This document shows positions 1,461-60,265 of a stretch of 64,000 nt of DNA, piece after piece. Source of the DNA: Prorocentrum cordatum (lineage: Eukaryota); contig CAUYUJ010000001.1 of the NCBI GenBank assembly GCA_963575745.1, forward strand, positions 62,001 to 126,000, read 5' to 3'. Under the pieces are notes generated by a model. The model ran no database searches. It was not told the origin of the DNA and saw nothing but the letters and a program-made list of their open reading frames with translations. Made by a program: the position numbers and the translations under genes. How positions within the stretch are numbered: the stretch's first letter is position 1; every line of letters starts with the position of its first letter.

Positions 1461-1482
1461 TCCGTAGCCATTTTGGCTCAAG
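1461..1482 (+). other. Perfect 22-nt dinoflagellate spliced leader at the 5' end of LINE-A
   Basis: TCCGTAGCCATTTTGGCTCAAG, 22/22 to DCCGTAGCCATTTTGGCTCAAG. Followed by GC rather than a GT donor, so it is not an SL RNA gene. Confidence 0.95.
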
Positions 1483-1792
1483 GCTTTTGGGTGCAGGTAT
1501 CCAGGATACCTGCGAAGCCTCGCGGGACTCGGCGGCCATACGTGCTCGCCCGCGCCGCCCTTGCTGGTGGCGTGCGGGCCGGCCGTGCTGCTGTGCTGTG
1601 GCGTGCGCCGCCCCCAGGGTGGGCGGGCGCACGACGGCGCCGGCGCCCGCAGTGCGCAGGGCGCGGCGCCGGCTGCGCGTGCGCGAGCCCGCCTGGCATA
1701 GGCGCGCTCGCGAGCGGCGCACGCAGTCGCGCACCTTGCTGCGCGTCGCCGCGGCAGCGGCGAGGTTGCGCGTGCACCACAGCAGCGGGATC

Positions 1793-3562
1793 ATGTCTGG
1801 CCGTGCTGGAGGTTATGGCAGCAAGGGCGGCGGCCAGGGCCGCAAGGGCGGCGGCAAGGGCAGCGCGGGCAGCGGCCACAGCGGGCAGAGTGGCAGCACT
1901 CCACCGTGGGCTGTGCCGCCGCCGCCACCAGGATGGTGGTGCCCGACGTGCGGAGGCCTCAATGGCCCGTCGGACCTGCTCTGCCGCACGTGCATGCCCC
2001 CGCCCGCCTGCGGGCCGCAGCACGGCGCAGCGGACCGCGGCAGCGAGGCTGGCGATCGACACGGCCAGCCGCGCGACCGCCACCGCCGTGCCTCCGGCTC
2101 GCGCCGCCGCAGGCGATCCAGCCAGACCAGGTCGACCTCCCGCGTGCGCTTCGCGGAGGACGAGGACGACGACGGCGAGGCCAATGAGGGCGGCCACTCC
2201 TCGGACGGCGGCGACGACGTGCTGCGCAGCCCGGCATTGGGCATTTTGCCCGCCCTGCCAGAGGCTGCCAAGGCTCACCCCGCCTGGGTCGAGCCGCCGA
2301 GTGAGGAGCGTGAGCTTGGAGCTCACCGCCGCTCGCTGCGCCAGATGGCCGCCGCCACAGGCAAACGCCTCCAGGCTGCGAAGGACTTAGGCATGTCGGC
2401 CGAGCAGATGCGCCCGCAGGAAGAGGAGTATGCCGTGCAGCTCTGTATGATCATTATCGCTCGGCCTTCTGGCGTGAGATGTGACAAGCAACGGTCATAT
2501 GTCCAGAGAGCGCAGCAGAAGCTGGAGAAAGCTCAGGATGCCGCCGCCGCAGCTCGTGCCGCCCTGGAGGACGCCGACGCCAAGGTCCAGCAGAGGTCGG
2601 CCGCCGTGGAGAGGGCCAGGACGCTGCTGGAACAGCTGGAGGCCATGCGCCCGCCTCCTGCTGCTGCTCATGAGGCAGCCGACGGAGACGTACCCATGGG
2701 CGGGGTGCCTAGCACACCGCCAGCGATGCCAGGCACCCCGCCCGACACAGCCCCGCCGATCGCCGCGCTCGCGGCGCTGCAGGCTGGGCAGCTGGAGCTG
2801 GGACAGGCGCTCGTGGGGCCCACGGGCTTGCTCGCGACGGTCCAGACGGAGTTGGCGGCGATGCGGGCCCAGGGCACTGCGGCATCGCATGCGGCCGCGC
2901 CAGAGGTTCGCCCGTTCGCTGGGCCACCGCAGCGCCTTGGGCCGGATGCGACACCCGCTGGAGAGCCTGCAGCGCCTGCGGCTGCGCATACGGCGGCGCC
3001 GCCGCCCGCGGCACCTGCAGCAGCCCCTGCTGCCGCCCCTGCGGCGGCCACCGCAGCCGCCCCCCCGGGTGCAGCCGCCGCCGCTGGCCCTGGGCAGGGC
3101 CCGCCAGCCGCCGCCGCCGACGGGGTGCATCCCGCGCAGCGCGGGCGCCAGGCCGCAGGCGTGCGCCCGAGGGCGCGCGGGGCAGAGGTCGTGGAGGCGG
3201 CGACAGATGCAGCTGATGCCGACGAAGAAGAAGAAGGATGGAAGAAGGTGGATGCAAAGAAGACTCGTGACGCCGAGGCGCGGAGGGCCCGTCGTGATGC
3301 CGAGCGCGCACGCCGACCGACTGGTCAACAAGGGCTTCGCGAGGCCATCGCGAGGCAAGAGGGAGTCGAGAGCCATCGTGGACGAGGCGCGATCCCTCCA
3401 GCTCCAGCAGGTCGCGCCGAGCTCGCCCACGAAGCTGGAGCTCCTGGTGCCGCCGCCGCTGCAGAACGCCGCCAGCGTCACAGTCGCAGCCACAGCCCTC
3501 GGCACACGCGTGCTGGTGGGGCCAAGGGATCAGATTCATCGGACCTGTCGGAGCTGGGGTGA
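1793..3562 (+). CDS. LINE-A ORF1 (gag-like): RanBP2-type zinc finger, coiled coil, Ala/Pro-rich and basic regions
   Basis: First ATG after the SL in this frame is at 1793 (MSGRAGG...). Contains WWCPTCGGLNGPSDLLCRTC and an E/Q/A-rich heptad region. Stop TGA 3560-3562. Confidence 0.8.
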   Translation: MSGRAGGYGSKGGGQGRKGGGKGSAGSGHSGQSGSTPPWAVPPPPPGWWCPTCGGLNGPSDLLCRTCMPPPACGPQHGAADRGSEAGDRHGQPRDRHRRASGSRRRRRSSQTRSTSRVRFAEDEDDDGEANEGGHSSDGGDDVLRSPALGILPALPEAAKAHPAWVEPPSEERELGAHRRSLRQMAAATGKRLQAAKDLGMSAEQMRPQEEEYAVQLCMIIIARPSGVRCDKQRSYVQRAQQKLEKAQDAAAAARAALEDADAKVQQRSAAVERARTLLEQLEAMRPPPAAAHEAADGDVPMGGVPSTPPAMPGTPPDTAPPIAALAALQAGQLELGQALVGPTGLLATVQTELAAMRAQGTAASHAAAPEVRPFAGPPQRLGPDATPAGEPAAPAAAHTAAPPPAAPAAAPAAAPAAATAAAPPGAAAAAGPGQGPPAAAADGVHPAQRGRQAAGVRPRARGAEVVEAATDAADADEEEEGWKKVDAKKTRDAEARRARRDAERARRPTGQQGLREAIARQEGVESHRGRGAIPPAPAGRAELAHEAGAPGAAAAAERRQRHSRSHSPRHTRAGGAKGSDSSDLSELG

Positions 3563-6500
3563 TGCGACATGACGGGCAGGCTTCGGGGAGTGAGGTGCTT
3601 GAGCCGCCAGTGCTGCCATCATCTCACAGCCTGCCCGCTGCTGGCCAACGGCCAGCCACGTCGCCTCGTCCCCACGCTCGGATGGAGTCCGAGCCTGGGC
3701 AGCCCCGATGCCCGATTCCCGACTGCAGTGAGCTTGTCAGGCAACTACGTCAGCCTTGGCAATCTAGTGCTTCTCTCTCCCCCGCCTTTCTCGGGCAGTG
3801 CCAGACGGCCGATCACTGTCTATTTCACCCATACCTTCACAGTAGTACGATTTCTTTTTTTGATACCCACGGAGCCTCCCCCCCCTCAGAGGATGAGCAG
3901 GTAGGTTGGGTCGAAATCCATACCGATGGGTCTGGAGGGTCTCGCCAACAATCCTTGGGAGAGCCACCGTCTTGGGCATGGTGTGTATTTACAGTTACTA
4001 CCTCGGGACGATATGTTTGCGAAGGTTACCTGTGTGGGATTGATCCTGATCTATCCAATTCCGTTGCCAGCCCCTCGGGTGCCGCTGAGTTTCAAGCAGG
4101 CCTGTGGCTGGTGCTATGGTTATTGCAAGCTGACGTTAGATTTTGCCAGTATCCCATTGTGGTGTACACAGACGACCAGCTTGTGGTGTCGACGGCGGCA
4201 GGTGGGACCCAGTATGCGTCATGTGGGGACTTTACGTGGCTTTTCGACGGTGCCTTGAAGTTGCTACGGCAGTATACGACGCTCACTTGGAATCACATCC
4301 TGGGACACAACGCCCACCCGTTAAATGAGCTTGCAGATACCATTGCACGGCTTGCCTCTATGGGCCTATTGCCGACTGTAGATGCAGACTTTCAACCGTG
4401 GTCAGTATTGCTTGCTGCCGCCGACCATGTACCTTGGTTATGGATTACTGCCAGCGCCAACGTCGGCTCAGGGGTATACCCGAATGTTGGTGCATGTGAA
4501 ATGCCGCGTCTCGCCCCTCCCCGTCTGGACCTTCAGACTGCTTTCTCGCCGCCTGCTGGACGCAGCCCGATTGACACGAGGGTGCCTCGTGATTCCTGTC
4601 CCTCAGGCGTGCTGTCCCTGCCTCAGGTACGATTCGCCGTGGCTAATGTGCTTACGTTACGGCCCCGCAGGAAGGCATCAAAGGGAAAAGGCGACAGCAG
4701 GATCAGATGCCGCAGCCAAGACGCGGCCGGACTCAACATGCCTGGCAGAATGCTCGCTCTTGCACATCAGTTCTCGTCTCGCCAGTTGCATCTTGTCGGC
4801 ACTCTTGAGACACGGCTATGCAGGAATGGTTGGACACCAGCAGGGGATTATGCCGTCATCACTGCCGCTGCCGAGGATCGAGGGAAGTTTGGAGTGGCCT
4901 TGTGGGTTAACATGCAGCATGAGTACGATGGTAGACACACTTTGGCGCGCCGTCATGTACGTGTGCTCAGTTTCTCGTCACGCCATCTGCTAGTTGCCAT
5001 TCGTGCACCTGGTCTCTGCATTGACGTGTTGGTTGGACATGCCCCTCACTCCCGTCGGCCACCAGACGAGATTCGAGGATGGTGGGATCAGGTTGCGTCA
5101 GTGCTCTCTGCTCGGGTTCAGCCAGCGCCGTTGCATTGCCTGCTTGATGCGAATGCCACGGTGGGCTCACAAGTATCAGACTCAGTGGGTGATGTGGCGC
5201 CCGAGGTTGAAAACTTCAATGGAGTGTGCTTCCATAAGTTTCTTCGGGATACCGAGCAGTGTGCAGTATCTACGTTTTTGCCGTCGTACTCTGGGGTACA
5301 CGGCACATGGTTACCGCCTGGGGCCCAGGGTCAAGCACCTAGACGTCGCATCGATCACATTACCACCCCCATCGGACAAATCAACAGCGTGGTGCATCAG
5401 GGTGTCGATGTCGATCTCGATCTGTCACTACGTCGGGACGATCACTTCGTGGTCACAGCTTACATGCGTATGCGCCATGCCGATCGGTACGAACCTGCCT
5501 TGCTATGGCCACGGTCTCGGCACGACACATCGAAGTATGACGACCCTGCCTGTCAGCAGGCCTTTGCACAGGCCCTACAGATGGTACCCCAACCCCCCTT
5601 CTCCATGCATCCGGACGACCATGCAGCACATTTGAATACGGCCTTGCTTGCGGCGGCTGAGTTAGCCTTCCCGCCTAAAGCGTCATTGTCCGGCCGCACG
5701 CCACAACATAGCTGGCTCTCCCAGGGCTCTCTAGACCTCATGGATCAGCGCACGCATGGCCGTCGTGCACTACGATACCTAAGGTCCAGTTTGTCGCGAC
5801 TGCTGCTTGCTACTGCCTTTGTGGCCTGGGCCTCTGACGGGGCCTCTGCGGGAGAATGGTTCTGTCACAGGATACACTGCAGGAGGTTCTCATATCGCGA
5901 CGGGCCCTCCCACCTACCTCTACTACAGTGCTGCCGTCGGATTGCGCAGGCGACCGACAGCGTACTGGATGCGACGAAGGCTTTCATGGTCCCACTACAG
6001 TCGCCCAGCGGGAAAATCAGCCTACCCCCGTTTACGACCGACCATGTCGTCGGTTTGCGCTACGTTGGGCGTCTCCCCACGTTGCACGAGCTGGCTGAGG
6101 CCCCCAGGGACCTACGGTATGACCTGGACATGATGTTGCGGTTCTACCTGGCGTGGTCTGGAGTTTTTTGGGCACTCAATCTGGTCTTTCTTCGGGGGGC
6201 CGCGTGCGTCATACAGACATCCACGGGACTCGACTCGGCTTGGCACTGTGCCAACATCGCCAAAGGGGTGCGCACAGCTTGGGACCGACGTCAGTTTGCC
6301 GAGGCATATGCCGCGCTGCGTCGGATCGGTGCAGGATCTAAGAGACGTCGATTCGAGCGAGTCCTTCCTGCTTTACAAGATCTTGCAGGTCAATCGATCG
6401 ACTCGGAACGACAGGTTGCACAGCGTTGGCAGCAGCACTTCGCAGGACTCGAGCATGCAGCTACGTTGCCCGTCACAGACGTGCCTACGTTCGCAGGACA

Positions 6501-9500
6501 CTTTGGGCGTACCCCCTATGCGCGCATGTCTGCCGAGCCCGTCAGCTTGTCAGCTATTCCCACCCTCGCCGAGTTCCAGTTCTCGTGCCGACAGGCGCGA
6601 CGGTCCGCCCCAGGATGCGATGGCATTGCAGGCGGCCTCTTGAAGGCCCACCCGACATTGATCGCCGAATACTACTACCCACTACAACTCAAGTTTGCTC
6701 TTACACTGGTAGAGCCGATTCAATGGAAAGGTGGATTTTATCGGGACCTTATCAAGTCTGGGCAAGCCGACCCGACGAAGTGCTCCAGTTCCAGGTCCAT
6801 TTTGGTCTCGTCACAACTTGGCAAGGCGTCTCGCAGATGCCTTCGGTCCCGACTACTACCATTTTTGGCCTCTGAGGCCGGGGAAACACAGTTCGGTGGG
6901 TTGCCAGGCCGAGGGACCACACATGCGTCTTTGGTGTTGCGAGTTGCACAGTCACTGGCCAAGATCAGACGGCAATCATTTGGTGCTCTCTTTCTGGACG
7001 TCGTACAGGCCTTCTACAGGGCCATTCGTGAACTCGTGGTGCGTGCCCATCGCGATTCCGACCTCGACGACATATCGGTTGCCGCCATTGTTCGTGCAGC
7101 AGGCTTGCCGCCCTCCGCCATGCAGCAGCTAACCGACCGACTCCGACAGAGAGCTGCGGCTCTCACCCGATCCAACGTCGACCCTCACACCGTCGCCCAG
7201 GTCGAGCAGTGCTATCAGGCACCCTGGTTCGTGTGTGAAGGATCAGGACAGGTTTCGCTCCCTCAACGCTCCTTTTTCCCCGGTCAACCTCTCGCTGATG
7301 TGCTCTTCGAGATACAGATGGCCGAGAGTATGCAGGAGGTGCGTGAGAAGCTTCTGACCGCTGGCTATCCCTATATGCTCCCGATGGCCACCCAGAGATC
7401 CCTCACAGCACTCAACGCCGAGGACCCCGATGACAGGCCCCCCGCAGAGATCCCTTTGGTCGATATCTCATATGCAGACGACGGCACCGTGATCCTCATC
7501 ATGCCCGCTGACCAGATTTACGGGGCCCTGTCCAGTTGCCTGGTCATTGTCTCAGACGCGTTTGCACGGTGTGGACACATTTTGAACCTCGGACCCTCCA
7601 AAACTGCAGCACTCATTATGTGGCGCGGACACGGTACCAAGCGTGCGCGGCATGCGGCATGGCACGAGCATGACGGACACATTTGTGGCGTATCGGACGT
7701 ACTTGGACCGCTTCGTGCGCCGATCGTACATAATTATGTGCATCTGGGCTCCGTATTCGATGCAGGCACTGCTATGGCCCCCGAGATTCGATACCGTGCG
7801 GCTACCACTGTCTCATCACTACAGGTACTTCGTCGCCGCGTTTTTGCAACGGACGAACTAGACCTCGCCCATAGGCTCGTGCTCGCAGACAGTCTAGTGC
7901 TATCCGGACGACTATACAACGCTGGCGCGTGGCCCGTACTGTCAGACGCCGAAGCTAAGCTGGCCCACGGTGAGACTATGAAGGTATATCGCGCAGCTGC
8001 CCGTGTTCGGTATTGCGAGGACGCGTCTCAGGTGTCCGACGCTCTGGTGCTTGCTAGGTTACGCAGGCCGGCCCCTGCTATCCTACTACGTGCAGCACGA
8101 CTCCGGCTATTGGGTTCACTTTTTCATACAGGACCCCTGCTGGCCTTTTCGGTTGTGGCAGCTGAGTGGCATGCAGCCGCCACCGACATGAAACGACGGC
8201 GCACGACCCTTGGACAATGGTTGCAGGATCTTGAGTGGTTGCGCCTTGCCACTAGACAATGTCAGGATTTACCCCCGCCCAAGGAGGACCTACAACCGTG
8301 GGAGGACCTCATGCGACGCAGCCTACCCGCCTGGAAGCGCATCATTCGCATCGGAGTGCATGCATATACACAGTACACGACGCGCAACACACTTGCAGCA
8401 CACATGGAGTCCCAGTTCTTTGATGAAGTACGCCCTGCGGGAGTGCCCCCTCGGGTATACACCGATGAACGTGGATGTATTATACAGCAGCCGCCGCCTG
8501 CCCCAGCACAGAGTATGGACTGCCCTTGGTGTGGGCAGTCTTTTGCCCGGCATCGGGCGCTACGCACACACGTGGCTCGCGTACATAGGCAACTAACTAC
8601 ACTTGCACGTGGCTATGCCAACCCGTCAGGGGTATGTCAAACATGTCTGCTCAGGTACAATGCACGGCCACATCTAGTGGATCATCTGTCGATCGATTCG
8701 CCTCGCTGCTTGCTGGCTGCTGTGCTGACTATGGTCAATCCAGCCTACCACCTACAGCTACCTGCCCAACCGATACTACCACGTGGACATACCACCAACG
8801 TACATATCCCTCGTCGCCACGTTGTCGTACCCACAGTTCGGACGCCGGGCCCCATCACCAAGATTGCGTTCGACCTTGCCGCGTTGGTGCCTCAGGAAGA
8901 TGCCCGCCGAGCCCTTTTGGAAAGTGACCCGTATCTCACTCCAGAGGCTTGTGCCGCACTCCTGCCACCACCACGGCCCGCTGCGGCCGAAGGAGATGCC
9001 TCTGAGCCAGGCCAACCACCACCGGTCTACCACGAGCGCTACCCGACGCGAATGTTCTTGACCGAGCAGTTTACCGACATTGCTGCTCAGGATTTGCCCA
9101 TTGCTATCCGACGGTCGGAATATTTCGTGCTTAACCTGCACTGTGGCCGACGACGGCCTGGTGACATCCAGGCCTGCCTCGAATGGACCGAGTATCATAC
9201 CGACTTCACCATTTCGGTTTTATCTATCGATATAGCGATCGACCCAGTACTAGGTAACATGATGCGACGCGAAACGCTGGAGGTATGGAAGGAGCATATA
9301 CGAGCCAGGCGAGTTGTCTTGTCAGGCGGCGGGCCACCCTGTGAGACGTGGTCAGCTATCCGTTGGTCCCCTGATGCAGGCCCTCCCCCCCTACGGTCCT
9401 ATGCCGATTTCTGGGGTTTGCAGGCCGTCACTCCCCGACAAATGGAGCAGTTACGTGTTGGTAACGAACTATTAGGGGCGATGATCGAACTGTTCGCCGT

Positions 9501-10443
9501 GCATCTCACCGTCGGTACCTCATGCTGGATGGAACATCCTATGCCTGCGCACTGGCGACCCGACTCCGTCAGTTCATTCTATTGCCCGCCCCTACGGGCT
9601 GTTATGGCATCCCCAGCAGCGTCGGTGACCGACTTCGATCAGTGCGAGCACGGTCAGGTTGCACGTGCACCTACAAGGATACTTGCACTGCGCATGGGCA
9701 CAATGCACGGACGCTTGTGCGAGACACCTGGGCGTGGACGTTGTTCTCACGGACGTGGGGCTCACGAGGTACTAATGGGGTTCGACAGGCGACGTGACGA
9801 GTGGCGTACGGCCAAAAAGAAAACCTACCCTCCGGCCCTATGTCAAGTCCTCGCAGACAGCATAATGGACGCAGTCAATCATATGCGCGTGACGTGTGCA
9901 GAGCATGATTGGCCAGAGGACATGAGGGAGGAGGAGGAGGAGCTCCGTGGGTCGCTTGCAGCTTTTTATGTTTCATGGGACCCGTACGTCGGTACGGACG
10001 AGTCCTGGGCCCCAGATTTTGTGTCGACGCGTGCTAGTCGGACTCGAGCGGATCCCGAGCGACATCGGTTCCTGCCACCTGAGCCGCAGTCGTCCTCTCA
10101 GCCCATGCCTGGAGTTGTTTTTGATCCCGAGGCTGAGGCCCGCCCCCCAGGGCCCATCGAGGCCTCGGAAGAGCAGGAGTACGCAGACGCTTTAGCGTTC
10201 CTCGATGGCACCATACCCCCTCAGCCAGGGGACTCCGAGCCACTGCATGAGCTTACCGCGTCCTCTCTTCCCCCTCCGCTCCCCCCTCAGCCCGTTGAGT
10301 TGACTGATGCGATGCGTGCACGTATTGCGGCTAACCGAGCACAGGCTCGAGAGCGACGCCGTCAACGGCTCGCACAACGCATCGCTCCCTGGACATTCCA
10401 GCCTGGATTCGGAACAGGTATTTTGGACATGCCCCAGGTCTAA
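3562..10443 (+). CDS. LINE-A ORF2 polyprotein: RNase H (~3907-4360), APE endonuclease (~4627-5460), RT (~6600-7760), two C2H2-like zinc fingers (~8520-8690), C5 DNA methyltransferase-like domain (~9120-9865)
   Basis: RNase H: IHTDGS, AAEFQA, YTDD, GHNAHPLNELAD. APE: ANVLTL, LETRL, LDANA, RIDHI, DDH. RT: QFGGLPGRGT, FLDVVQAFY, YADD, YVHLG. ZnF: CPWC...HVARVH. DNMT-like: GGPPCETWS, MEHP, DQC..G, YPPALC. 2293 codons with no stop. Confidence 0.92.
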   Translation: MRHDGQASGSEVLEPPVLPSSHSLPAAGQRPATSPRPHARMESEPGQPRCPIPDCSELVRQLRQPWQSSASLSPAFLGQCQTADHCLFHPYLHSSTISFFDTHGASPPSEDEQVGWVEIHTDGSGGSRQQSLGEPPSWAWCVFTVTTSGRYVCEGYLCGIDPDLSNSVASPSGAAEFQAGLWLVLWLLQADVRFCQYPIVVYTDDQLVVSTAAGGTQYASCGDFTWLFDGALKLLRQYTTLTWNHILGHNAHPLNELADTIARLASMGLLPTVDADFQPWSVLLAAADHVPWLWITASANVGSGVYPNVGACEMPRLAPPRLDLQTAFSPPAGRSPIDTRVPRDSCPSGVLSLPQVRFAVANVLTLRPRRKASKGKGDSRIRCRSQDAAGLNMPGRMLALAHQFSSRQLHLVGTLETRLCRNGWTPAGDYAVITAAAEDRGKFGVALWVNMQHEYDGRHTLARRHVRVLSFSSRHLLVAIRAPGLCIDVLVGHAPHSRRPPDEIRGWWDQVASVLSARVQPAPLHCLLDANATVGSQVSDSVGDVAPEVENFNGVCFHKFLRDTEQCAVSTFLPSYSGVHGTWLPPGAQGQAPRRRIDHITTPIGQINSVVHQGVDVDLDLSLRRDDHFVVTAYMRMRHADRYEPALLWPRSRHDTSKYDDPACQQAFAQALQMVPQPPFSMHPDDHAAHLNTALLAAAELAFPPKASLSGRTPQHSWLSQGSLDLMDQRTHGRRALRYLRSSLSRLLLATAFVAWASDGASAGEWFCHRIHCRRFSYRDGPSHLPLLQCCRRIAQATDSVLDATKAFMVPLQSPSGKISLPPFTTDHVVGLRYVGRLPTLHELAEAPRDLRYDLDMMLRFYLAWSGVFWALNLVFLRGAACVIQTSTGLDSAWHCANIAKGVRTAWDRRQFAEAYAALRRIGAGSKRRRFERVLPALQDLAGQSIDSERQVAQRWQQHFAGLEHAATLPVTDVPTFAGHFGRTPYARMSAEPVSLSAIPTLAEFQFSCRQARRSAPGCDGIAGGLLKAHPTLIAEYYYPLQLKFALTLVEPIQWKGGFYRDLIKSGQADPTKCSSSRSILVSSQLGKASRRCLRSRLLPFLASEAGETQFGGLPGRGTTHASLVLRVAQSLAKIRRQSFGALFLDVVQAFYRAIRELVVRAHRDSDLDDISVAAIVRAAGLPPSAMQQLTDRLRQRAAALTRSNVDPHTVAQVEQCYQAPWFVCEGSGQVSLPQRSFFPGQPLADVLFEIQMAESMQEVREKLLTAGYPYMLPMATQRSLTALNAEDPDDRPPAEIPLVDISYADDGTVILIMPADQIYGALSSCLVIVSDAFARCGHILNLGPSKTAALIMWRGHGTKRARHAAWHEHDGHICGVSDVLGPLRAPIVHNYVHLGSVFDAGTAMAPEIRYRAATTVSSLQVLRRRVFATDELDLAHRLVLADSLVLSGRLYNAGAWPVLSDAEAKLAHGETMKVYRAAARVRYCEDASQVSDALVLARLRRPAPAILLRAARLRLLGSLFHTGPLLAFSVVAAEWHAAATDMKRRRTTLGQWLQDLEWLRLATRQCQDLPPPKEDLQPWEDLMRRSLPAWKRIIRIGVHAYTQYTTRNTLAAHMESQFFDEVRPAGVPPRVYTDERGCIIQQPPPAPAQSMDCPWCGQSFARHRALRTHVARVHRQLTTLARGYANPSGVCQTCLLRYNARPHLVDHLSIDSPRCLLAAVLTMVNPAYHLQLPAQPILPRGHTTNVHIPRRHVVVPTVRTPGPITKIAFDLAALVPQEDARRALLESDPYLTPEACAALLPPPRPAAAEGDASEPGQPPPVYHERYPTRMFLTEQFTDIAAQDLPIAIRRSEYFVLNLHCGRRRPGDIQACLEWTEYHTDFTISVLSIDIAIDPVLGNMMRRETLEVWKEHIRARRVVLSGGGPPCETWSAIRWSPDAGPPPLRSYADFWGLQAVTPRQMEQLRVGNELLGAMIELFAVHLTVGTSCWMEHPMPAHWRPDSVSSFYCPPLRAVMASPAASVTDFDQCEHGQVARAPTRILALRMGTMHGRLCETPGRGRCSHGRGAHEVLMGFDRRRDEWRTAKKKTYPPALCQVLADSIMDAVNHMRVTCAEHDWPEDMREEEEELRGSLAAFYVSWDPYVGTDESWAPDFVSTRASRTRADPERHRFLPPEPQSSSQPMPGVVFDPEAEARPPGPIEASEEQEYADALAFLDGTIPPQPGDSEPLHELTASSLPPPLPPQPVELTDAMRARIAANRAQARERRRQRLAQRIAPWTFQPGFGTGILDMPQV

Positions 10444-12105
10444 CGTAGCTCGCTGCATACCGATTGGGATGGGTTTTGGTTGAGGATGAGGAGGTGGGAG
10501 GTTGTTGATTTTGTCAGTGCGCCTCGCTGTCCCATGCCCGCCCGATTGCCCCTACTCCACCACCCCGTTGCCAATACTTGTCGTAGCAGCGCTACCTAGA
10601 CAGCCTGTGGATGATGCTATGGTTCTTGCAAGCTGACGTTGGTTTTGCCAGTTTCCCCTTGCTGGAGGTTTCCGTGGGATACTTCCCCTCCCGTTAAATG
10701 AGCTTGCAGTTGCCATTGCACGGCTTGCCTGTTTGGGCCTGTTGCCGACCATATCGTGTGTGGTCCGCTCGTTCGAGCTTGCAGTTCCCCTCGTGCCTGT
10801 GTGTACGTGTTGATCCCTATCTATTTCACCCGTGCTCCCAGATGGCCGCCGCCATTGGCAAACGCCTCCAGTCTCCTAAGACCCAGGACCAGATGCGCCC
10901 TCTGGAAGAGGAGTATGCCCATGGGTCAGTTGGTCAACCGCTCGGCTTTGGCGTGAGATGTGACAAGCTTCGGTCTAGTGTCCTGAGAGCCAGGCAGACT
11001 GGAGTTGCTGGCGATGCCGCAGCTGTGGCTCGTGCCGCCATGGAGGAGTGGAGGATGAGGTTTAGAGGGCTGCAGCGGACGTGGGGGAGAGCAGAGAGCA
11101 GGGCGCGTGCGCGCGCCCCGCCGCCCCGCCGCCGCACGCCCGCCCCGCCGCCCCCGCCGCCCGGCGCGAGCGAGCGGCGCGGCAGTGTAGCAGCGAGCGA
11201 CTCCTCGCCTCTCCCCTCCGTTTTGTCAAACTTCAAGCCTTGGCCCGTGGGGGGCAGCGGCAGGGGGCTCGGTGAGCGTAGACCGTCGCTAACCACACAC
11301 CCGTTGCGTGTGGCACCGAGCCCCCGAGTGTCCGTCAGTCCGCGCGGCCGCCAGCCAGGTGCTCATGCGGCTGCGCGCCGCAGCCCTCGCCTGCCGCCAG
11401 CTTTTCTTGCTGTTGCCTTGCAGATAAGGTTCGGAGTCGTCGGGAGGGATGAGAGTGCAGTCCTCCTCAGCTCAGACAGTTGGCAGTTGGCTAGGTCCGT
11501 TGGTAGACGAGACCAAGTCGGACGGATCGAATGAGACTGCAGCGAGTCAGACGCAGCCGCCTTCTCTCCCCATCTTGCCCTCCCTCTCCAATGCCGTGAT
11601 CAGAGAGAATCGAGCCCTGGCGGACAGGGAAAGTTGGGAACACCGTGGCAGGACCGCCCCTCTGTTGTTCCGTACGCTCTCTCCTGACCACGGCTGAAAG
11701 TCAGCCAAGCTGGCGTTTAATGACTAGTGGAGGTTGGTGGGTTGTTTAAGGATACTTTGGAGGTGGGACTTGCACTCGGCGTTAAGCCCGAACTGTGTGC
11801 TGAGATGTACCTTGCCTTCGGTGCGAGATTCGAGTTTTAGTACGGACGCAGAAGCTGTCCATGCCAAATGCCTCCAGTCGATAGTGGCCGCGCCTCTGCC
11901 AGTGCCACACTGCTGCCTCGCATCCAGTCGCTGGCGCAGTTAATACTATGGGACTGGGTGGGTTTGTGCATTTCATGGGAGGTGGGATGGAGGTACTGTA
12001 CTGTGCTTGTTCACTTGGTGCCCGCGCAGCCATTTAAGTCTGCTAGCCGCAGCGCCGCTCTTTCTCTGACCGTCACCAGGCGAATCAGATGCGCAATCTA
12101 AAATC

Positions 12106-12500
12106 TCCCTCCTCCTCCTCCTCCTCCTCCTCCTCCTCCTCCTCCTCCTCCTCCTCCATCTCCTCCTCCCTCCGCCCTCCGCCCTCCTCCTTCCTCCCTC
12201 CTCCCTCCTTCCTCCTCCCTCTTCCCTTCTTCCTCCCTCCTCCCTCCTCCCTCCTCCGCTCTCCTCCCTCCTCCCTCCTCCTCTTTCATCCACCGCCCGC
12301 TGCCCCCTCCCCCGCCCTCGGCAGAGGGTGCCGATTATCACGACTGCTGCAACGCGACTGCCCAACTAAAGGGTGGAGGAGGAACAGGAGGAGGTGGACG
12401 AGAGAGAGAGGAACGAGAAGGAGAAGGGTGGATGCGGGTGCGAAGGAGCAACGAGACGAGGAGGTGGAGGCAGAGGGGAGGAGGAGAGGGAGGAGGAGTT
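12106..12500. repeat. (CCT)n then GA-rich low-complexity tract
   Basis: Directly visible. Confidence 0.85.
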
Positions 12501-16916: not shown

Positions 16917-16938
16917 TCCGTAGCCATTGCGGCTTAAG
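16917..16938 (+). other. Degenerate DinoSL relic (19/22), probably heading an old retrocopy
   Basis: TCCGTAGCCATTGCGGCTTAAG; ATG 10 nt downstream (16948), followed by broken ORFs I cannot identify. Confidence 0.7.
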
Positions 16939-24726: not shown

Positions 24727-24748
24727 CTTGAGCCAAAATGGTTACGGA
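24727..24748 (-). other. DinoSL (21/22) at the 5' end of LINE-B
   Basis: Reverse complement reads TCCGTAACCATTTTGGCTCAAG and lies 3 nt from the TSD. Confidence 0.92.
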
Positions 24749-40258: not shown

Positions 40259-40280
40259 CTTGAGCCAGAATGATTGCGGA
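40259..40280 (-). other. Degenerate DinoSL relic (18/22)
   Basis: Reverse complement TCCGCAATCATTCTGGCTCAAG; all four differences are transitions. No recognisable ORF follows. Confidence 0.6.
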
Positions 40281-45587: not shown

Positions 45588-45992
45588 ATGCAGGACCTCG
45601 CCCACCATGCAGCGGACGTCCTGAGGTTTGGGGCGCAGGCGCTTGGGGCCTCGCTGGTGGCGCGCGCTTCTGCGCCCAGTTGCGGGAACTGCTCCCCGCA
45701 TTTGGCGTGCCCTGCGCCGCCGGCCCTGGCTTGCCCTTCCTGCGTGTGCGCGGGCGCTGGCGGCCAGGTGGTGGAGCCCTCGTGCGCGGGCCTCGTGGCG
45801 GCCTACGCGGTGGCCGCCTGCACGGTCGGGCTCGCCGTCGGCGCTGTGGCAGGCGCCTTCTTGGCGCGCCGCGCGCTCGCACCGCCTCTCGAGCCTGCGA
45901 TTGGCGAGCTGCCCACGGAGGTGATCGACATCGCCGTCCTCGCTGCCGAGCAGGTGCGCCTTGCTCGCGCCAGAGCCCCAGCGCTGCAGTGA
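45588..45992 (+). CDS. YR-A ORF0: small Cys-rich protein with a predicted transmembrane helix (134 aa)
   Basis: MQDLAHH...SCGNCSPHLACPAPPALACPSCVC...GLVAAYAVAACTVGLAVGAVAGAFLA-RR...; its stop overlaps the next ATG (TGATG). Confidence 0.55.
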   Translation: MQDLAHHAADVLRFGAQALGASLVARASAPSCGNCSPHLACPAPPALACPSCVCAGAGGQVVEPSCAGLVAAYAVAACTVGLAVGAVAGAFLARRALAPPLEPAIGELPTEVIDIAVLAAEQVRLARARAPALQ

Positions 45993-50100: not shown

Positions 50101-51228
50101 GATCGTCTACGGCGCCTGCTTCGATCGCCCTGGGAAGACAGAGGATCGGCATGGGGGTGCGGCCGACGACTGCCCACCTCGTCGTCGCACCAGGGAGGAG
50201 GCCAAGGACCGCGGCCAGTGGAGAACGGACCCGAGCCTCTCCCGCCACACCAAGAGGGCTCGAGTGCTGCAGCAGATTGCCACTTTAGACCAGATCCTGA
50301 TCGGCCGTGGGCACGGGGTGGACTCGCTGATGGACGATCTCATGCTGCAGACCACCACCACGGGCGTCTTCTCTCTGCGACGGCCGCTTGCCGCGACGCC
50401 GACACCGCCAGCGGTCAGGCATCCGCCTCCGCAAGTGACAGCGCGGTGGGCCTCCGCCTGACACGGATTTGGCGTGCAGCCAGACGCGCGGCGACGCGGT
50501 CCAGGTACCTGCCCGCCTTGGTGGTTGGCGGCGACGGCGGCGCGGCTCGCGCGCTGCAGCGCCTCGGCTTCGGCGTGCTGCACTTGAGCGTGAGACGCCA
50601 GGCCACTGATGGCATCACAGATCCTTTAGTGATGAAGCGTGTGCTAGGCTGGATCCGTGCAGGCTGCATTTCGCGCGCGCGGGTGGGGCCCGACACGACT
50701 ACTTGGCTTCCTCAGAAGCCCGCTGTCCGTAGCATAGCTCGTCCCAACGGCCTGCCGATTTTGTCTAGTGCCCAGCTTCGATCAATTCACATTGCGAATC
50801 TATTTTGCAGTCAGTACGTGCGCCTCCTGTCACTATGTAGCAGCAATAAAGTTCCTGCCGCGCTGTGTCATCCAGATGCGTCTTTTATCTGGGATGTCCC
50901 AGCCTGCGCCGCTCTCGTTAGCCAGTGTTTGTCTGCTGCTGCTTTTGATGCATGTATGTTTGCTGGCCGTGTAAAGAGAAGATTTCGATTGGTGAGCTGG
51001 CATGTTAAGGACATGAATTCTCTTTCTGCTATCTGTTCGCCTGCCGACTCGCTCTGTTGTCGATCTGGGAAACGACATCTTGGCGAGCTCGGCATCCCAT
51101 CTCTAGATCGTCAGGTCCGCAGCAAAGCGTCGCGGCCCCCCGTCAATGTTCTAAGATGTGCCTGCGACAGGATGGCTCTCAGTGTTGATTCGCTTCGCTA
51201 CGTCGCTCAGCAGATCAAAACTATGTGA
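47185..51228 (+). CDS. YR-A pol: DIRS-type RT + RNase H, read through to a degenerate DNMT-like C-terminus
   Basis: RT: FFVEKS..LRLVFDTR, GDIQCAFY, MPMGWSWA, CVDNF. RNase H: SDAS, YEAEAL, VDN, WIPSESNAADSPSR. C-terminus: ITDP..VLGWIRAG, GPDTTTW, CHPDASFIW, DACMF. Confidence 0.85.
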   Translation: MTSEKSRPGCGARSSGASQAHCPIAAHQWRQRDIFPLRPIPVERRSGIASMGGSARGRAAKGAAWREWYNDAVSTLNDMYHCDPDDMVAPPPGLPPRARSDAEECLAQQFRDFELPSGYSESPTRCEAALAELLASAPGYSGESRVRPYNKELVSWPKHVAPVPTADLVSDADRSTLSGWRQQILRDPAETAALRMNSGIGSPYVDPRLRFRPREHADFLLRLDQAGMLELEVAERQAAYSTGFFFVEKSNGVNLRLVFDTRVANMSFSAPPSTRLPTPSAWSALEASNDFYVAQGDIQCAFYHMKLPPQLHRYFSLPVVQNRHAGLQVINGVKIPTKAFLQPFVSVMPMGWSWALHFCQSALTAAIRDAGIDDDAMLVGGAAPRPLRNDTDVIAAGCVDNFATVSLDPEVATASCQAIRDVLVARGLPVDEFAPAAPRVIFTGLDILGDVGVIRCKVDRLCRLRQALLGLLRRGYASPLALSAVVGHCTWGMITNRPMLSIFHAVYRFMGQDSRRALPLWPSVVAELRAAASLIPLWWADVRAEWAATTFCSDASPYGIGVCRKTVEQDVAAAAGRLSERWRYRFSDAVRARARALGVDPNVVLEAAVSKNCLKDCEQCPRPPETHSKPPLTASSSHRGIDDVSLDGFDEVPDSITALDGWATIHSARHARFGLDIMRYEAEALGFAMRHSARSGRLRHHRILFTVDNLALALAAGKGRSGARGLRDPLRRLCALSAASGIRHAVRWIPSESNAADSPSRTGFFVGPTFEEYQAAAPRASPPPGFDIDGAEDQDAAKARTARAGSALGRRVSRRVGHDHGQRLGRGQEVRGVEPSDAPDHHHSGGGRCHPSYLLREPLSGQFRRCYGPSRARLSEALPAPAYGGHGAVHGCGSRLDRLAEARAPADATLSSTGGDGLHGGRPRFVEALRHGSVHQADDRRLPDDQRGLSPVSGRRSSTKTRCHSRIRTSGPDRLRRLLRSPWEDRGSAWGCGRRLPTSSSHQGGGQGPRPVENGPEPLPPHQEGSSAAADCHFRPDPDRPWARGGLADGRSHAADHHHGRLLSATAACRDADTASGQASASASDSAVGLRLTRIWRAARRAATRSRYLPALVVGGDGGAARALQRLGFGVLHLSVRRQATDGITDPLVMKRVLGWIRAGCISRARVGPDTTTWLPQKPAVRSIARPNGLPILSSAQLRSIHIANLFCSQYVRLLSLCSSNKVPAALCHPDASFIWDVPACAALVSQCLSAAAFDACMFAGRVKRRFRLVSWHVKDMNSLSAICSPADSLCCRSGKRHLGELGIPSLDRQVRSKASRPPVNVLRCACDRMALSVDSLRYVAQQIKTM
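49560..50461 (+). pseudogene. YR-A tyrosine recombinase (overlapping frame, internally deleted, likely inactive)
   Basis: RALTGWRKLAP, DAYPTTNAAYRL (LRPSE lost), RPGKT fused almost directly to RHGGAADD, DRGQWRT, SRHTK (catalytic Tyr replaced). YR-B retains the segment deleted here. Start is approximate. Confidence 0.75.
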
Positions 51229-55728: not shown

Positions 55729-55764
<36 letters not shown>

Positions 55765-55770
55765 GACGAG

Positions 55771-55812: not shown

Positions 55813-55834
55813 TCCGTAGGCATTTTGGCTCAAG
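55813..55834 (+). other. DinoSL (21/22) at the 5' end of LINE-C
   Basis: TCCGTAGGCATTTTGGCTCAAG directly after (GAC)n. Confidence 0.92.
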
Positions 55835-55965
55835 GCCATGGTGATCCCGACGACCGCGAGTCCTTCGGGCGCTGTCGAGCGCGAGGGACGCCGCGCCCTG
55901 GGCCAGCTTCTTGCTTCGTTTCTTCGATGCAGCGTGGCCAGGCGGAGCGCGCGGGGCCTGCAACC

Positions 55966-57303
55966 ATGTCGGGCGACGGAACTGGAGCGCCGCCAACCTG
56001 GAGGCGCAGGGTGTACTGGGTCTGCCAGTGCAAGGAGTGGAACTGGTGTGACAAGAGGGCGACCTGCAAGTCGTGCGGGAAGGAGGCGCCAGCGTGGGCG
56101 AAGCGCCTGCGCGCGGTGCACCAGCCCCAGGCCGACGGGGAGGGCTTCGTCCAGCAGCCCAGGGGGCGTTCGCACCGGCGTGCAGCGCGCCGAGCTGGTG
56201 ACGCCTCTAGGACAGCCTCGGCCGCCAGCACCGTGCCGAGCAGCGCGCCCAACAGCAGGGGGCGGCCGCGGGGCGGAGCCAAGCCGCCGCCTTGGCGTGA
56301 GGAGCGCGAGGAGCAACCAGAGGAGCCCGCGTCGAGTCTGGAGCGCAGGCTCGAGGAAGCCCAGGCTCGCATCTCCAGCCTCCGCGAGGCGGTCGCCGTG
56401 GAGGGGACCAGCGAGGCCTTCCAGCGAGAGGCCATGGCGGCCCTCCTCGCAGCGGAGGCTTCGGCCGAGAGGGCAGAGGCCGAGCTCCGCGAGGCCCAGC
56501 GGCTCGGGAGGCCCCCCCACGCCGTCCTCCACGGAGGCGCCAACGCCATGCAGAAGGTCGAGAAGCAGATCACTGCAACCAGAGCCAAGCGTGAGCAGGC
56601 CGTGCAGCGAGCTGAGTCCCTCAGGGGGAAGATTGCGGCGACGCAAGAAGAGCTGGCCGAGGCCGAGTCCGCGGTCGAGGACTTCGACCGCCAGCTGGGC
56701 AAGCTCGAGGAGTCGAAGGCTCAGACAGTCCAGCAGGCGCTCCAGCGGGCCATTGAGGTGTGCGGAGGCCAGCGGCCCCTGGAGACCGCGGTCGGGGGCC
56801 TCGTCACCCAGGTCAGCCAGCTGGGTGAGATGCTCGGCCGCAACTCGGATGGCGTCGCGCCCAGGCCCCTGGAGATCATGGACATCATCACCACGCAGAG
56901 CGCAGCCATCTCGGACATGCTCCACCCCGCTGCGCCTGCTGCCGCGGCCTCGCGCTGGGCCGACGGCCTTGGCGGGGACGGGCTCGCCGTCGACGACGAG
57001 GAAGGCCCCCCCGCCCCAGCCGCTGGGGCCTCTGCCCCCGCGGTGCAGCGGCCGCCAGCGGAGACCGCAGGGCAGCAGGTGCGGCCAGGCCCGCCCACCC
57101 AGCGGGCGAGCCCAGCAGTGGGGCCCTACGGGCCAGCCGCTGCCCGCGGGCAGTCAGGCGCGGCGCTCGGCGCTTGGCCCCGGCCTGGCCAGGCCGAGCG
57201 CAGAATCCTTGAGGATGCCAGGGACGAGCACGAGGATGGCCAGGCCTTGGCTACCCTGGCAACTGCTGGGGGCTACGCTCCTATGGGCCCTCGTCGCTCC
57301 TAG
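55966..57303 (+). CDS. LINE-C ORF1 (RanBP2-like zinc finger + coiled coil)
   Basis: YWVCQCKEWNWCDKRATCKSC and a long E/A/Q heptad region; alternative ATG at 55927. Confidence 0.72.
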   Translation: MSGDGTGAPPTWRRRVYWVCQCKEWNWCDKRATCKSCGKEAPAWAKRLRAVHQPQADGEGFVQQPRGRSHRRAARRAGDASRTASAASTVPSSAPNSRGRPRGGAKPPPWREEREEQPEEPASSLERRLEEAQARISSLREAVAVEGTSEAFQREAMAALLAAEASAERAEAELREAQRLGRPPHAVLHGGANAMQKVEKQITATRAKREQAVQRAESLRGKIAATQEELAEAESAVEDFDRQLGKLEESKAQTVQQALQRAIEVCGGQRPLETAVGGLVTQVSQLGEMLGRNSDGVAPRPLEIMDIITTQSAAISDMLHPAAPAAAASRWADGLGGDGLAVDDEEGPPAPAAGASAPAVQRPPAETAGQQVRPGPPTQRASPAVGPYGPAAARGQSGAALGAWPRPGQAERRILEDARDEHEDGQALATLATAGGYAPMGPRRS

Positions 57304-60265
57304 CCGCTCGGCTGCAGCGACAGCCTGGGGACCCGCGCCGCCGCCGCCGCCGTCAGACTGGCCGAACTTGCACCAGACGCGAGGGGAGCCACGGCGGCAA
57401 GGCGGCCTCGCTCCTGGGCCGAGGTGCGGTCGGGACCGCCGAGGCGCCCCTCCGACGGCCTCCTGCGGGCAGACGGCGGGAGGATTCAGCCCTCCGACGT
57501 CGCAGCCGTCTGCCCCGCCCCATGGGAGTCGCGGAGCCGCTGCTGGGTTCACGCCAGCCGCCCCTGAGGCGAGAGTGGGCGGGGCTGTGCCAGCTTGTGA
57601 GAGGGCTGCCGGGCAGCCCCGTGCAGGCTTCGACGTGCTGGATCTCTACGGCAACACATGGGACCGTGCCATGGAGGTGCTCGAGGCCTACATCGTGCGG
57701 GAGGGCGCGCGCCTGCACCTCGTCACGGCCCAGGAGGGCCCCCTTGGGCCCCGCCAGCTGGAGAATGCTAGCCGCCGAGCTCGCGGCTTGGGCTACGCGG
57801 CCTTCTTGCATGATGCAGCGCCCACTGGACAGGCGGCCCCTGCCCACTCAGGAGGCGTCGGAGTACTTGCCCGTGAGGACCTTCAGGCGCGGGAAGCTCA
57901 GTGGCGAGTGCCAGGGGACTTCAAGCACCACATGATCGCCGAGGACCTGATCCACAAGGCTGGGCCTACGTCCAGTGTGATATGGGGGCGGACGGTTACT
58001 GGCGTGGCCGACGGAGAGTTGCGCGGTGGGCGAGTCACCGCGTGCCTCTGCGCGGGGCGGCTCCCCCGCGGCGCGGCCCTCGGCCTCAGGCTGCGGCGCG
58101 CGGAGCTCCGCCGGGGCCTCGACCTGGATCCGCTCGTGCTGATCACGGACCGCACGCTCTATATTCTTGCAGGGTGGTTGCACTCGGGCGAGCTCCCCCT
58201 GCCGATGCTCAGGGGTGCGCTCGAGGCTGCAGCTTCGCGGCGGGCGTCAGCAGCGGCGCCCTGGGTGCACCGCAACTTCCCCGTGGATGCAGCTGCCCTC
58301 ACCCTGGGCAGGATTGGCTGGTACTTCAGGTCCGAGCGGTGCCTCGTCACGGACGTCGGGGACATGCTGGACTCGACGCTGATGGGGCCGCGTGAGCTCG
58401 GCTTTGAGGCCTGCCTTGGGGCGAGGCGCGCCTCGGATCGGCATGAGATGCGAAAGCTGGCCAGTGCCTCTTCTTTGTATGGTTCCTCCCTTTGGGGTGC
58501 CTTCAAGGAGCTCATCGGGCCAGGAGGCAAGCTCAGCGAGCGCGAGACGAACGGGCTGGTCTCCCACCTCACGAACGCGCACTGGCCGCAGGCGAGGCTC
58601 CACGGCGCCCGCGGAAGCGGCCACGCCCGCTGCAGGCGCCTCTGGCACAGGATGTTCGAGTGCCCCATGCTTGCGGCCCAGCGGAGGGACTCGGTCTCGC
58701 CAGCGCTGATGTGGAGCGCTGTGCGGGTTCGCGCCCTCGGAGAGGCAGCAGGGGAGGACGTTGCTCGGTGCTGGTTGTCAGCGCCGCCGCCTCCTCAAGG
58801 GCCTCGCACGGACGCCATGGGTGTCTGGTGGATATGCAGGCCGCCCGACGACAAGCCCAATGGCAAGTTGAACGTGGACGGCTCGTCGGTCGACCCGCAG
58901 TTCTGCGCCTTGGGGCACGCGGGCTGGGCGATTGCTCAATGCGGCGACGACGGCAGCCTCATCGCGGGCGTCTACGGGACCGTCAGGAGGGTCCTCCGTC
59001 CACAGCAGGCGGCTCGTGGCGGTGAGGACTTCGCGGTCTGGAAGATGGTGAACTACGCGGGCCCTGCAGTCGAGGAGGTCAACATCGACTGCCACGGCAC
59101 GGCCGAGTGCTCGCGTAGGGGGCTGGCCTATGCGACGGGCCCGACCAAGGCCAACGCCCACCTCTGGAGCAGGAGCCTCGCCGCCTTCGAGCCTGGCGGC
59201 CCCAGGGTGAACAAGGTGGCCGCCCACGGCAGCAGGCAGGCGGCGCTCGACGGGCGACTCACGGAGGCGCAGAGGCGCAGCACCCTGCACGCCTACCGCC
59301 TCGCCAAGCTGGAAGCACGGCTGCACGCCCAGGGCGCCCAGACCGTGGGCGAACACTGCGCCTTGGCGGGCTTCGCCCAGGAACAGGCCTGCTGGGTGGG
59401 CCAGGCGGCGGTCTTCAGGCAGCACTTCGCGGAGAAGGACAGTGACCGCTTCCTCGAGTCCGACGAGAGGCGGCAGGTGCGGTTCGCCGATCAGGAGGAG
59501 CGGGCCGAGCTGCCCACTCCATGCAGGCCGACGGCGCAGCAGCCGCGAGTGGAGAGCGTCCGCTCGGCTTTGTTGCGCGGGCGGCCTCTCCATCACCACG
59601 GCTGGCATCCGCTGCCGCTGCCACTCCCTGACGCACGCGTGCTGCGGCGTAGGCGGGGAGTCCCAGGAGCTGGTGGCGTGCGGCAAGTGCGGCGCCGACA
59701 TGGTCCTTGGTGGCCAATCTGGAGGCCGCCCAAAGCTCAAGGAGCAGTGCATCGGCGAGAGGGCCACGGGGCAGCGCAACCAGCGCCGCCCCCGGGCTCG
59801 AGGGCTACACCCAAGTGGTCAACCACGCGGAGGTGTTCAGCAGCGCAGGGAGAAAGGTGCTGAAATCCCCGCGCTGAGGCTGCAGGGGCCGCTACCCCCA
59901 GCGGCCCAAGAGGCCTTCCAGGCATGGCTGGGCCTCGAGGGAGAGGAGGCGCCCCTGCAGCAGGTGGCAGCTCAGCAGCAGCAGCGTCGCGTGGTGCAGG
60001 CGGCTGCGAGCATTGGCCAACAACGAGGCCGACGGCAGCAGTGCAGCAAGGGACGGCGGGCAGCGCCCCGCGGGCCGCCATGCTGGCCGCGCACGGCCTG
60101 GACGTGCAGGACCTCGCCGAGCAGGTGCTGCCCGCCAACGCCGCCGCGTAGGGCCGCCGCGACCGCCCGCGGCGCGGCCGCGGCCCGCGCCCTGGCGGCG
60201 TGAGCTCGGGCGAGTAGGCTGCTCGCCTGGAGTCGCCTTCATGGCCCCGCGAATCGAATCGAATC

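Follow-up and report, generated by a model that had tools for sequence, protein, structure and literature searches.

The 64,000-nt stretch of the Prorocentrum cordatum genome analyzed here (assembly GCA_963575745.1, contig CAUYUJ010000001.1, positions 62,001 to 126,000 of the forward strand; hereafter, the window) contains three long interspersed nuclear elements, LINE-A, LINE-B, and LINE-C. In each of them a full-length dinoflagellate spliced leader (DinoSL; SL for short) occupies the exact junction between retroelement and target. The window also holds two degraded SL relics, a further retroelement, and one exon piece of a host gene (Table 1).

Spliced leaders at the 5' junctions of three LINEs

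The 64-kb window was scanned with the 21-nt DinoSL core, allowing at most 3 mismatches, and 100 dinucleotide shuffles served as the control. Four matches were found, at 1462-1482 on the plus strand (0 mismatches), 24747-24727 on the minus strand (1 mismatch), 55814-55834 on the plus strand (1 mismatch), and 16918-16938 on the plus strand (3 mismatches). The shuffled sequence gave 0 matches in 100/100 shuffles, demonstrating that the SL copies at the junctions are far beyond chance. When the preceding T is included, the SLs of LINE-A, LINE-B, and LINE-C match DinoSL at 22/22, 21/22, and 21/22 positions, confirming the observation of an earlier note on this DNA that each of the three LINEs opens with DinoSL. 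In total, five SL copies lie within the 64 kb; the two relics, at 16917-16938 and 40259-40280, are older full-length SL copies, both degraded and neither followed by recognizable coding sequence.

Downstream of the SL in LINE-A, -B, and -C lies the untranslated region (UTR) of the element, and the SL RNA is represented by its exon part alone: the GTAC.. intron of the SL RNA is absent after the SL of all three. An Rfam search of the whole window returned no RNA family, an Rfam check of the three LINE 5' ends revealed neither a hepatitis delta virus (HDV)-like ribozyme nor any other family, and a tRNA gene search found none. The flanking DNA is (CCT)n for LINE-A, a 90-bp satellite for LINE-B, and (GAC)n for LINE-C. 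With neither an SL-RNA intron nor an Rfam family in the window, the claim that no LINE of the three sits inside an SL RNA gene was upheld.

Read along the minus strand, the LINE-B locus consists of satellite, GGTCCCAGTGGGTGT, a C, the SL (TCCGTAACC..), the element ending in ..CACACT, A10, GGTCCCAGTGGGTCT, and satellite again. The two flanking 15-mers form a target-site duplication (TSD), with one additional C (24749) between the 5' copy and the SL. The 90-bp satellite array at 24749 to ~26500 comprises ~19 units that are 65 to 86% alike, and another unit is found at 18238-18330, beyond the A10 tail; the array is split by the LINE-B insertion. Together, the SL, the A10 tail, and the 15-bp TSD of LINE-B form the classic footprint left when a polyadenylated, SL-bearing RNA undergoes target-primed reverse transcription.

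The other two elements lie in microsatellites. LINE-A is inserted in (CCT)n, with ~400 bp of repeat up to the SL and repeat again from ~12107; its 310-nt 5' UTR precedes open reading frame 1 (ORF1), and its 3' end is ..AATCTAAAATCT, without poly(A). LINE-C has (GAC)n upstream of the SL and again from 60266, and it ends in a simple-repeat tail, (GAATC)3.

Table 1. Features of the window (positions count from the first letter of the 64,000-nt stretch)
Feature	Position	Strand	Remarks
Acyl-CoA dehydrogenase (ACAD) C-terminal domain exon piece	~437..547	+	profile positions 30-66 of 150, E = 2.3e-8, above Pfam cut-off
LINE-A	1461..12106 (3' end approximate)	+	SL at 5' junction, (CCT)n on both sides
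DinoSL of LINE-A	1461..1482	+	22/22
LINE-A ORF1	1793..3562	+	589 aa; CxxC..CxxC zinc motif and alanine/glutamate-rich coiled-coil-like stretch (by eye)
LINE-A ORF2	3562..10443	+	2293 aa (P0001); RNase H, apurinic/apyrimidinic endonuclease (APE)-type endonuclease, reverse transcriptase (RT), C2H2 zinc finger, conserved C-terminal domain
LINE-A 3' UTR	10444..12106	+	degenerate ORF1-segment copy at 10839-10988
Degraded SL relic	16917..16938	+	19/22; no recognizable coding sequence behind
LINE-B TSD, 3' copy	18314..18328	-	GGTCCCAGTGGGTCT, 14/15 identical to 5' copy
LINE-B	18329..24748	-	SL 24748-24727, A10 tail 18338-18329
DinoSL of LINE-B	24727..24748	-	TCCGTAACCATTTTGGCTCAAG, 21/22, G7 to A
LINE-B TSD, 5' copy	24750..24764	-	GGTCCCAGTGGGTGT
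Degraded full-length SL relic	40259..40280	-	18/22 (own count); no recognizable LINE sequence behind
Other RT-bearing retroelement	45257..51228	+	two long ORFs; no SL at edge (internal contrast)
LINE-C	55813..60265	+	in (GAC)n, ends (GAATC)3
DinoSL of LINE-C	55813..55834	+	TCCGTAGGCATTTTGGCTCAAG, 21/22, C8 to G
LINE-C ORF1	55966..57303	+	445 aa; zinc motif and coiled-coil-like stretch (by eye); other frame than listed long ORF
LINE-C ORF2 remnant	57569..59863	+	endonuclease start joined at ~57930-57940 to post-RT and RNase H-like part

Coding capacity and relatives of the elements

LINE-A is a full-length, intact element. Its ORF1 gave only subthreshold matches in Pfam, and the ORF1 stop and ORF2 start overlap as TGATG (window 3560-3564), a layout that suggests termination-reinitiation, as occurs in some insect LINEs. 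Searched alone against Pfam, the ORF2 product P0001 had no significant RT match. It has 39 homologues of ~25% identity, from Symbiodiniaceae and other sources, that bear RVT_1, RNase_H, or Exo_endo_phos; no relatives were found in IMG/VR. A family profile from a 14-member alignment matched human LINE-1 ORF2p (E = 1.5e-12), R2 (1.5e-10), and RNase HI (3e-8), and among the 14 aligned members Pfam detected RVT_1 in 7, RNase_H in 6, and Exo_endo_phos in 4 (best E, 5.4e-11). The domain order of LINE-A is also found in the homologue P0013.

The C-terminal domain of LINE-A ORF2 (window 9000-10100; P0001 residues ~1830-2150) carries the family-conserved motifs LHLFSGRRR.GD, GPPCETWS, and EHPA.P. It had no match in Pfam and none in PDB; in the ESM Atlas the closest named cluster is DNA_methylase (0.87), a lead only, and the GPPC..WS motif is reminiscent of motif IV of DNA methyltransferases (DNMTs). 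Weak similarity (E = 0.019, alongside a P0007 hit) links the domain to the C terminus of an ORF of the retroelement at 45 to 51 kb (window 50506-50922). In the 3' UTR, the degenerate ORF1 segment is a copy of residues 287 to 342 (53% identity over 58 aa, E = 4e-7). RNase H-like fragments were also seen by eye at ~10610-10750.

To survey LINE-A copies, contigs from 4 DNA runs, belonging to 4 studies, were mapped on the element, with the stretch 1431-1468 skipped as repeat. Multicopy contigs covered LINE-A from ~1480 to ~12100 in the 4 runs. In run X1, 68 of the 316 contigs on LINE-A were at least 99% alike, 152 were 95 to 99% alike, and 96 were 90 to 95% alike; the LINE-A family is thus multicopy and partly young. 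Contigs in runs X5 and X2 join 3161 to 10354 and 3990 to 10598, skipping 7,192 and 6,607 bases, respectively, demonstrating the existence of LINE-A copies with internal deletions. Three runs also show a variant with a 34-nt insertion at 11533.

LINE-B is colinear from 23524 to 19468 with P0045 to P0048, P0075, and P0076 in tblastn, and since these relatives align across several frames, this copy is frameshifted. The relatives bear endonuclease, RT, zf-RVT, and RNase H domains, and RVT_1 lies above the Pfam cut-off in P0045, P0075, and P0076. For LINE-C, residues 1 to 382 of P0051 are 80% identical to ORF1, and at E ≤ 0.001 its ORF2 part matches 327 homologues. A relative of LINE-C, P0052 (80 to 85% identical), aligns with residues 1 to 124 on 57569-57940 and residues 734 to 1071 on 57920-58912. 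Residues 125 to 733 of P0052 (~609 residues, comprising the RT and the remainder of the endonuclease) have no counterpart in LINE-C, leaving a gap at ~57930-57940, so LINE-C is an RT-deleted, nonautonomous derivative. P0051, a predicted protein, matches both LINE-C ORF1 and the post-RT part, with residues 383 to 440 unmatched and full-length relatives outside the comparison, a hint that RT-less copies like LINE-C may recur.

Exo_endo_phos was detected in P0075 (1.2e-10), P0076 (6.9e-9), and P0052 (9.1e-6), all aligned to LINE-B and to the LINE-C ORF2 start, and P0075 and P0076 have Exo_endo_phos and RVT_1 ahead of the region common with LINE-C. Because P0075 and P0076 align to both elements, we place LINE-B and LINE-C in one clade. 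The three LINEs had been described as mutually different; LINE-A does stand apart, and the separation of LINE-B from LINE-C did not hold.

These comparisons define the class of the elements. A non-LTR (long terminal repeat) RT is found for LINE-A through its family profile and for LINE-B through its relatives, and in LINE-C it is deleted. An APE-like endonuclease ahead of the RT is found through members of the LINE-A family and relatives in the LINE-B/LINE-C clade; none of the window's own ORFs alone rose above the Pfam cut-off for an endonuclease. No restriction-like endonuclease follows the RT, the relatives instead having an APE-type Exo_endo_phos ahead of it. No LTR-like pair flanks the elements among the 20 listed of 40 direct-repeat families.

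The SL-first build was also found outside the window. Exact-SL scans covered metagenome contigs, species-genome (metagenome-assembled genome, MAG) contigs, and IMG/VR viral contigs; the metagenome scan gave 126 loci with 144 occurrences. Of 278 distinct SL copies in public contigs, 32 are SL genes or probable SL genes with the GTAC.. intron, and 13 consist of SL plus CCATTTTGGCTCAAG relics. One locus, L139, a 9,096-bp contig of 70% GC filed in a bacterial MAG, reads (GA)n, SL (21 nt; 22 counting a C), ORF1, ORF2, ..GGGTAAAAAA (a tail of A6), and (GA)n. Its ORF1 contains Zn_ribbon_RanBP (1.4e-7), and its ORF2 (2353 aa) contains Exo_endo_phos (1.7e-9), RVT_1 (4.8e-11), and RNase_H (1.1e-5). L139 had no detectable similarity to LINE-A or, in phmmer, to 89 other LINE proteins, and the SL-first build has thus arisen repeatedly, with at least three LINE lineages unrelated to one another and at least two sources showing it. 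The genomes behind L139 and five other loci yielded no further SL-LINE. As a separate observation, bacterial and archaeal MAGs contain dinoflagellate contigs (L139, L127, L130, L136, L141, and others) with an 8.9-kb LINE, SL RNA genes, and SL retrocopies; their presence in these MAGs is bin contamination.

A zinc-motif screen downstream of the SLs found 3 of 277 contexts (L015, L057, and L139), with Pfam significance in L139 only, and the ORF1s had no significant mutual similarity (best pairwise E, 0.04). In L015 (1-1807), the SL and two truncated relics precede an ORF whose start bears a CxxC..CxxC zinc motif resembling those of LINE ORF1s, and in L057 the SL stands behind (TGTAA)n-like repeats and precedes a similar motif. 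We did not count L015 as a LINE, its likeness being at the motif level without significant ORF1 similarity. Should L015 and L057 represent LINE 5' ends, L015 would be a case of an SL-bearing element that was re-spliced repeatedly.

Origin of the junction leaders

Taken together, these data make it likely that LINE-A, -B, and -C are target-primed reverse transcripts of SL-trans-spliced LINE mRNAs, copied to the 5' end of the RNA. The LINE RNA would receive the 22-nt DinoSL by trans-splicing, as host messages do; the LINE machinery would then reverse-transcribe the SL-capped RNA at nicked target DNA, and synthesis would run to the RNA 5' end, leaving the SL exon as the first bases of the insertion, directly against the target. 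An SL exon standing first at the target would follow from reverse transcription that reaches the 5' end of a trans-spliced RNA. This process, the one that makes SL-tagged retrogenes, would here be acting on the elements themselves. The earlier proposal that SL-capped element RNA is copied to its very 5' end is therefore supported by the SL exon alone standing first, by LINE-B with its SL, A10, and 15-bp TSD, and by L139.

Several observations weigh against this reading. The microsatellite flanks of LINE-A and LINE-C hide any TSD, and the first three SL bases of LINE-A (TCC) are indistinguishable from the CCT repeat. At the LINE-A 5' end, sibling contigs begin only at ~1480, with 1431-1468 skipped, so the junction itself is not covered. 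Trans-splicing of the element RNA as the source of the SL is a step that we infer from DNA sequence. Among public SL copies, tblastn of metagenome SL contigs (most of them 1 to 2 kb) with the window LINE proteins and the 39 homologues gave 0 matches, and Pfam found 0 RT or endonuclease domains in 67 ORFs of at least 180 aa downstream of metagenome SLs. The species-genome and IMG/VR SL contigs likewise gave 0 tblastn matches, and phmmer with 90 LINE proteins matched L139 alone.

A further proposal was that these elements live without a promoter: a sense copy in a transcribed region would be released by SL trans-splicing at the terminal AG of its own genomic SL, restoring an identical 5' end each round. 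We regard such a cycle as plausible, if rather unlikely. All 4 full-length SL-first LINEs (LINE-A, -B, -C, and L139) have one complete SL with no truncated relic behind it, as the cycle would leave them, since the relics of the 13 public copies mark re-splicing at an inner AG and splicing at the terminal AG would be traceless. The same single SL equally fits first-generation copies from SL-less masters, and the re-splicing of retrocopies documented in the available text of PMC12014239 uses an inner AG, usually leaving CCATTTTGGCTCAAG. A G comes after the terminal AG of both LINE-A and LINE-C, and the resulting AGG is the common acceptor motif of P. cordatum, present at 79.7% of acceptors according to the text available here of the genome paper (PMC10666404). 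There is, however, no consistent polypyrimidine tract, the upstream repeat being (CCT)n for LINE-A, purine-rich (GAC)n for LINE-C, and (GA)n for L139. No internal ribozyme match was found, as the cycle would have it. Host context bears on it as well. The earlier note had placed LINE-A and LINE-C in sense introns of an ACAD gene, a placement that is conjectural here, above all for LINE-C, 55 kb away: only one ACAD exon piece (~437-547) was found among the searched ORFs, with no further piece among 187 more window ORFs (148 + 39). That piece lies ~900 bp upstream of LINE-A on the same strand, which favors the cycle; LINE-B is antisense to this sole host exon, which speaks against it. A wider version also strikes us as rather unlikely, namely, that dinoflagellate LINEs gave up promoters, that sense copies in long one-directional transcription units are re-spliced at the AG of the inherited SL with the 5' end rebuilt each generation, and that this microsatellite-preferring machinery is the long-sought source of SL-tagged retrogenes (a fifth or more of dinoflagellate genes).

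Alternatively, a few SL-less master copies with an own or borrowed promoter and an ordinary acceptor before the 5' UTR could be the sources, their SL-bearing daughters seldom or never serving as such; this we hold possible, if somewhat unlikely. It explains the single complete SL without relics in 4/4 cases, and LINE-B and LINE-C are defective copies. Sibling contigs in X1 and X5 start at ~1480, within the AAG that closes the SL, which fits a graph branch between copies that share AG and UTR and differ upstream; the same start may equally reflect a single-base variant or low depth, and no loose end is listed there. No SL-less copy was seen among the contigs examined, and the resemblance of P0051 to LINE-C, if it signals recurring RT-less copies, would also speak against such masters. 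It is improbable that the DNA-encoded SL is itself a core promoter element, acting through its T-rich motif so that SL copies start their own transcription. Upstream of retrogenes, SL relics preferentially retain their TTTT, TTTG, and TTGG parts, and this was proposed as the reason that retrogenes survive in the accessible portion of Song et al. (2017, PMC5585692). Initiation at or after the SL would nevertheless not restore a full SL unless trans-splicing occurs there too. Template switching of LINE reverse transcriptases at RNA 5' ends is known, and the U6-L1 chimeras of mammals provide a precedent for a jump from the end of LINE RNA onto SL RNA or another SL-bearing RNA. Here it is highly improbable: the intron part of the SL RNA would have been copied too, yet only the 22-nt exon is present in 4/4 cases, and the join falls exactly at the splice junction beside an apparently complete 5' UTR, without varied truncation points.

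The targets of SL-bearing copies were compared by counting, with a strict measure, non-SL-gene public SL copies with at least 24 nt upstream that directly adjoin a microsatellite; random positions of the same contigs served as the control. Such copies numbered 5/102 in metagenome, 3/14 in MAG, and 0/121 in viral contigs, compared with 103/19,984, 43/20,000, and 24/20,000 random positions, respectively. Since SL copies beside microsatellites are far commoner than random positions in the metagenome and MAG sets, the SL-retrocopy machinery seems to favor simple repeats, as LINE-A, LINE-C, and L139 do. The loci at which an SL was seen directly beside a microsatellite are L005, L019, L054, L059, L066, L070, L096, L116, L130, L139, and L141.

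Relation to known systems

Trypanosomatid SLACS, CZAR, and CRE and nematode NeSL-1 insert in SL RNA genes, encode a restriction-like endonuclease, and have the SL as target DNA. The likeness to these elements is that a LINE is physically joined to an SL; unlike them, the window LINEs have microsatellite or satellite flanks, no SL intron, and APE-type relatives.

DinoSL-relic retrogenes (mRNA recycling) were reportedly described by Slamovits and Keeling in 2008. The window LINEs resemble them in being transcript copies free of introns whose 5' end is an SL encoded in the DNA, LINE-B also having an A-tail and a TSD; according to the portions available of PMC5585692 and PMC12014239, a trans-spliced RNA has been reverse-transcribed in the retrogenes. 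The cargo differs. As defined in the text available of PMC5585692, retrogene cargo is a host gene without coding capacity for the retroposition enzymes, whereas here it is the LINE itself, a retrotransposon with two ORFs, its own tail, and a microsatellite or satellite target. Retrogenes also carry relic arrays, whereas each LINE SL is single and complete. In the text at hand of Song et al. (2017, PMC5585692), the Gene Ontology (GO) term "RNA-dependent DNA replication" is enriched among SL-relic genes, and RT genes with SL relics have thus already been counted in bulk; there and in PMC12014239, LINEs enter only as the presumed source of the enzyme, at least in the parts available.

Other selfish elements provide partial parallels, each described here from the available portion of its source. 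The Symbiodinium element SymbioLINE-Dnmt (de Mendoza et al. 2018, PMC5890265) has TSDs and UTRs that are conserved at both ends, and like LINE-A and LINE-C it lacks a poly(A) tail; its DNMT lies in ORF1, whereas the conserved domain of LINE-A lies at the end of ORF2. The term "spliced leader" has 0 occurrences in the available main text of PMC5890265. The 5' HDV-like ribozymes of R2, RTE, and L1Tc (PMC4035085, PMC3185411) release promoter-less LINEs from host co-transcripts with a defined 5' end, much as the promoter-less cycle considered above would; this route differs from that cycle in using self-cleavage and leaving no host-derived leader. L1Tc/ingi Pr77 (PMC1874656, PMC8190864) is found in a LINE of another SL-trans-splicing organism and represents the opposite solution, an own internal promoter and unspliced transcripts. 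Another selfish element of dinoflagellates that bears the host leader is dinoRNAV: its transcripts have a 5' dinoSL, which PMC10235124, citing Levin et al. 2017, interprets as molecular mimicry. It differs from the LINEs in being an RNA virus or an endogenous viral element, and the text of PMC10235124 at hand does not describe the anatomy of the junction. The word "retrotransposon" does not occur in the available text of the P. cordatum genome paper (PMC10666404), and no description of an SL as a LINE 5' terminus was found in the partial texts of the literature searched. The copying of whole SL-capped LINE RNA is a natural, apparently undescribed corollary of known biology.

If LINE RNAs are trans-spliced and copied whole, the SL would be a built-in mark of full-length insertions, usable to find, count, and date insertions in very large, repeat-rich dinoflagellate genomes. 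The flood of dinoflagellate retrogenes would then be tied to specific LINE families and their microsatellite preference. A testable question is also raised, whether a retrotransposon can live promoter-less by borrowing host trans-splicing; if so, LINEs would have a third solution to their 5'-end problem, in addition to internal promoters and HDV-like ribozymes.

Other retroelements and giant-virus leaders

No SL match was found near 45 kb in the window SL scans, where the remaining retroelement (45257-51228) lies. The homologues of its proteins are up to 97% identical and bear the name Prorocentrum cordatum, and RVT_1 is present in some of them; by eye, it was judged DIRS-like or LTR-like.

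Exact DinoSLs were also seen in giant-virus MAG contigs, at 119 loci with 124 distinct copies having enough flank; they comprise L146 to L263 from IMG/VR and also the metagenome loci L002/L003, L017, L018, L043, L047, and L061 to L063. Position 1 of the SL is A in 120/124 copies, each SL lies directly behind the AT-rich, promoter-like consensus ATTTTTTATTTTTTATTTTTAAATA.AAATTTTA, and the first ATG follows at a median of 48 nt downstream. To judge from these contexts, viral transcription units seem to mimic the host leader with a copy encoded in DNA or, alternatively, SL-cDNAs were captured. A literature search, in the part of it available, returned no title on DNA-encoded DinoSLs in giant viruses. 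Finally, a GC-rich metagenome contig (L073/L074) carries a major capsid gene of nucleocytoplasmic large DNA viruses (NCLDV; PF04451, 4.9e-17) together with two exact DinoSLs.

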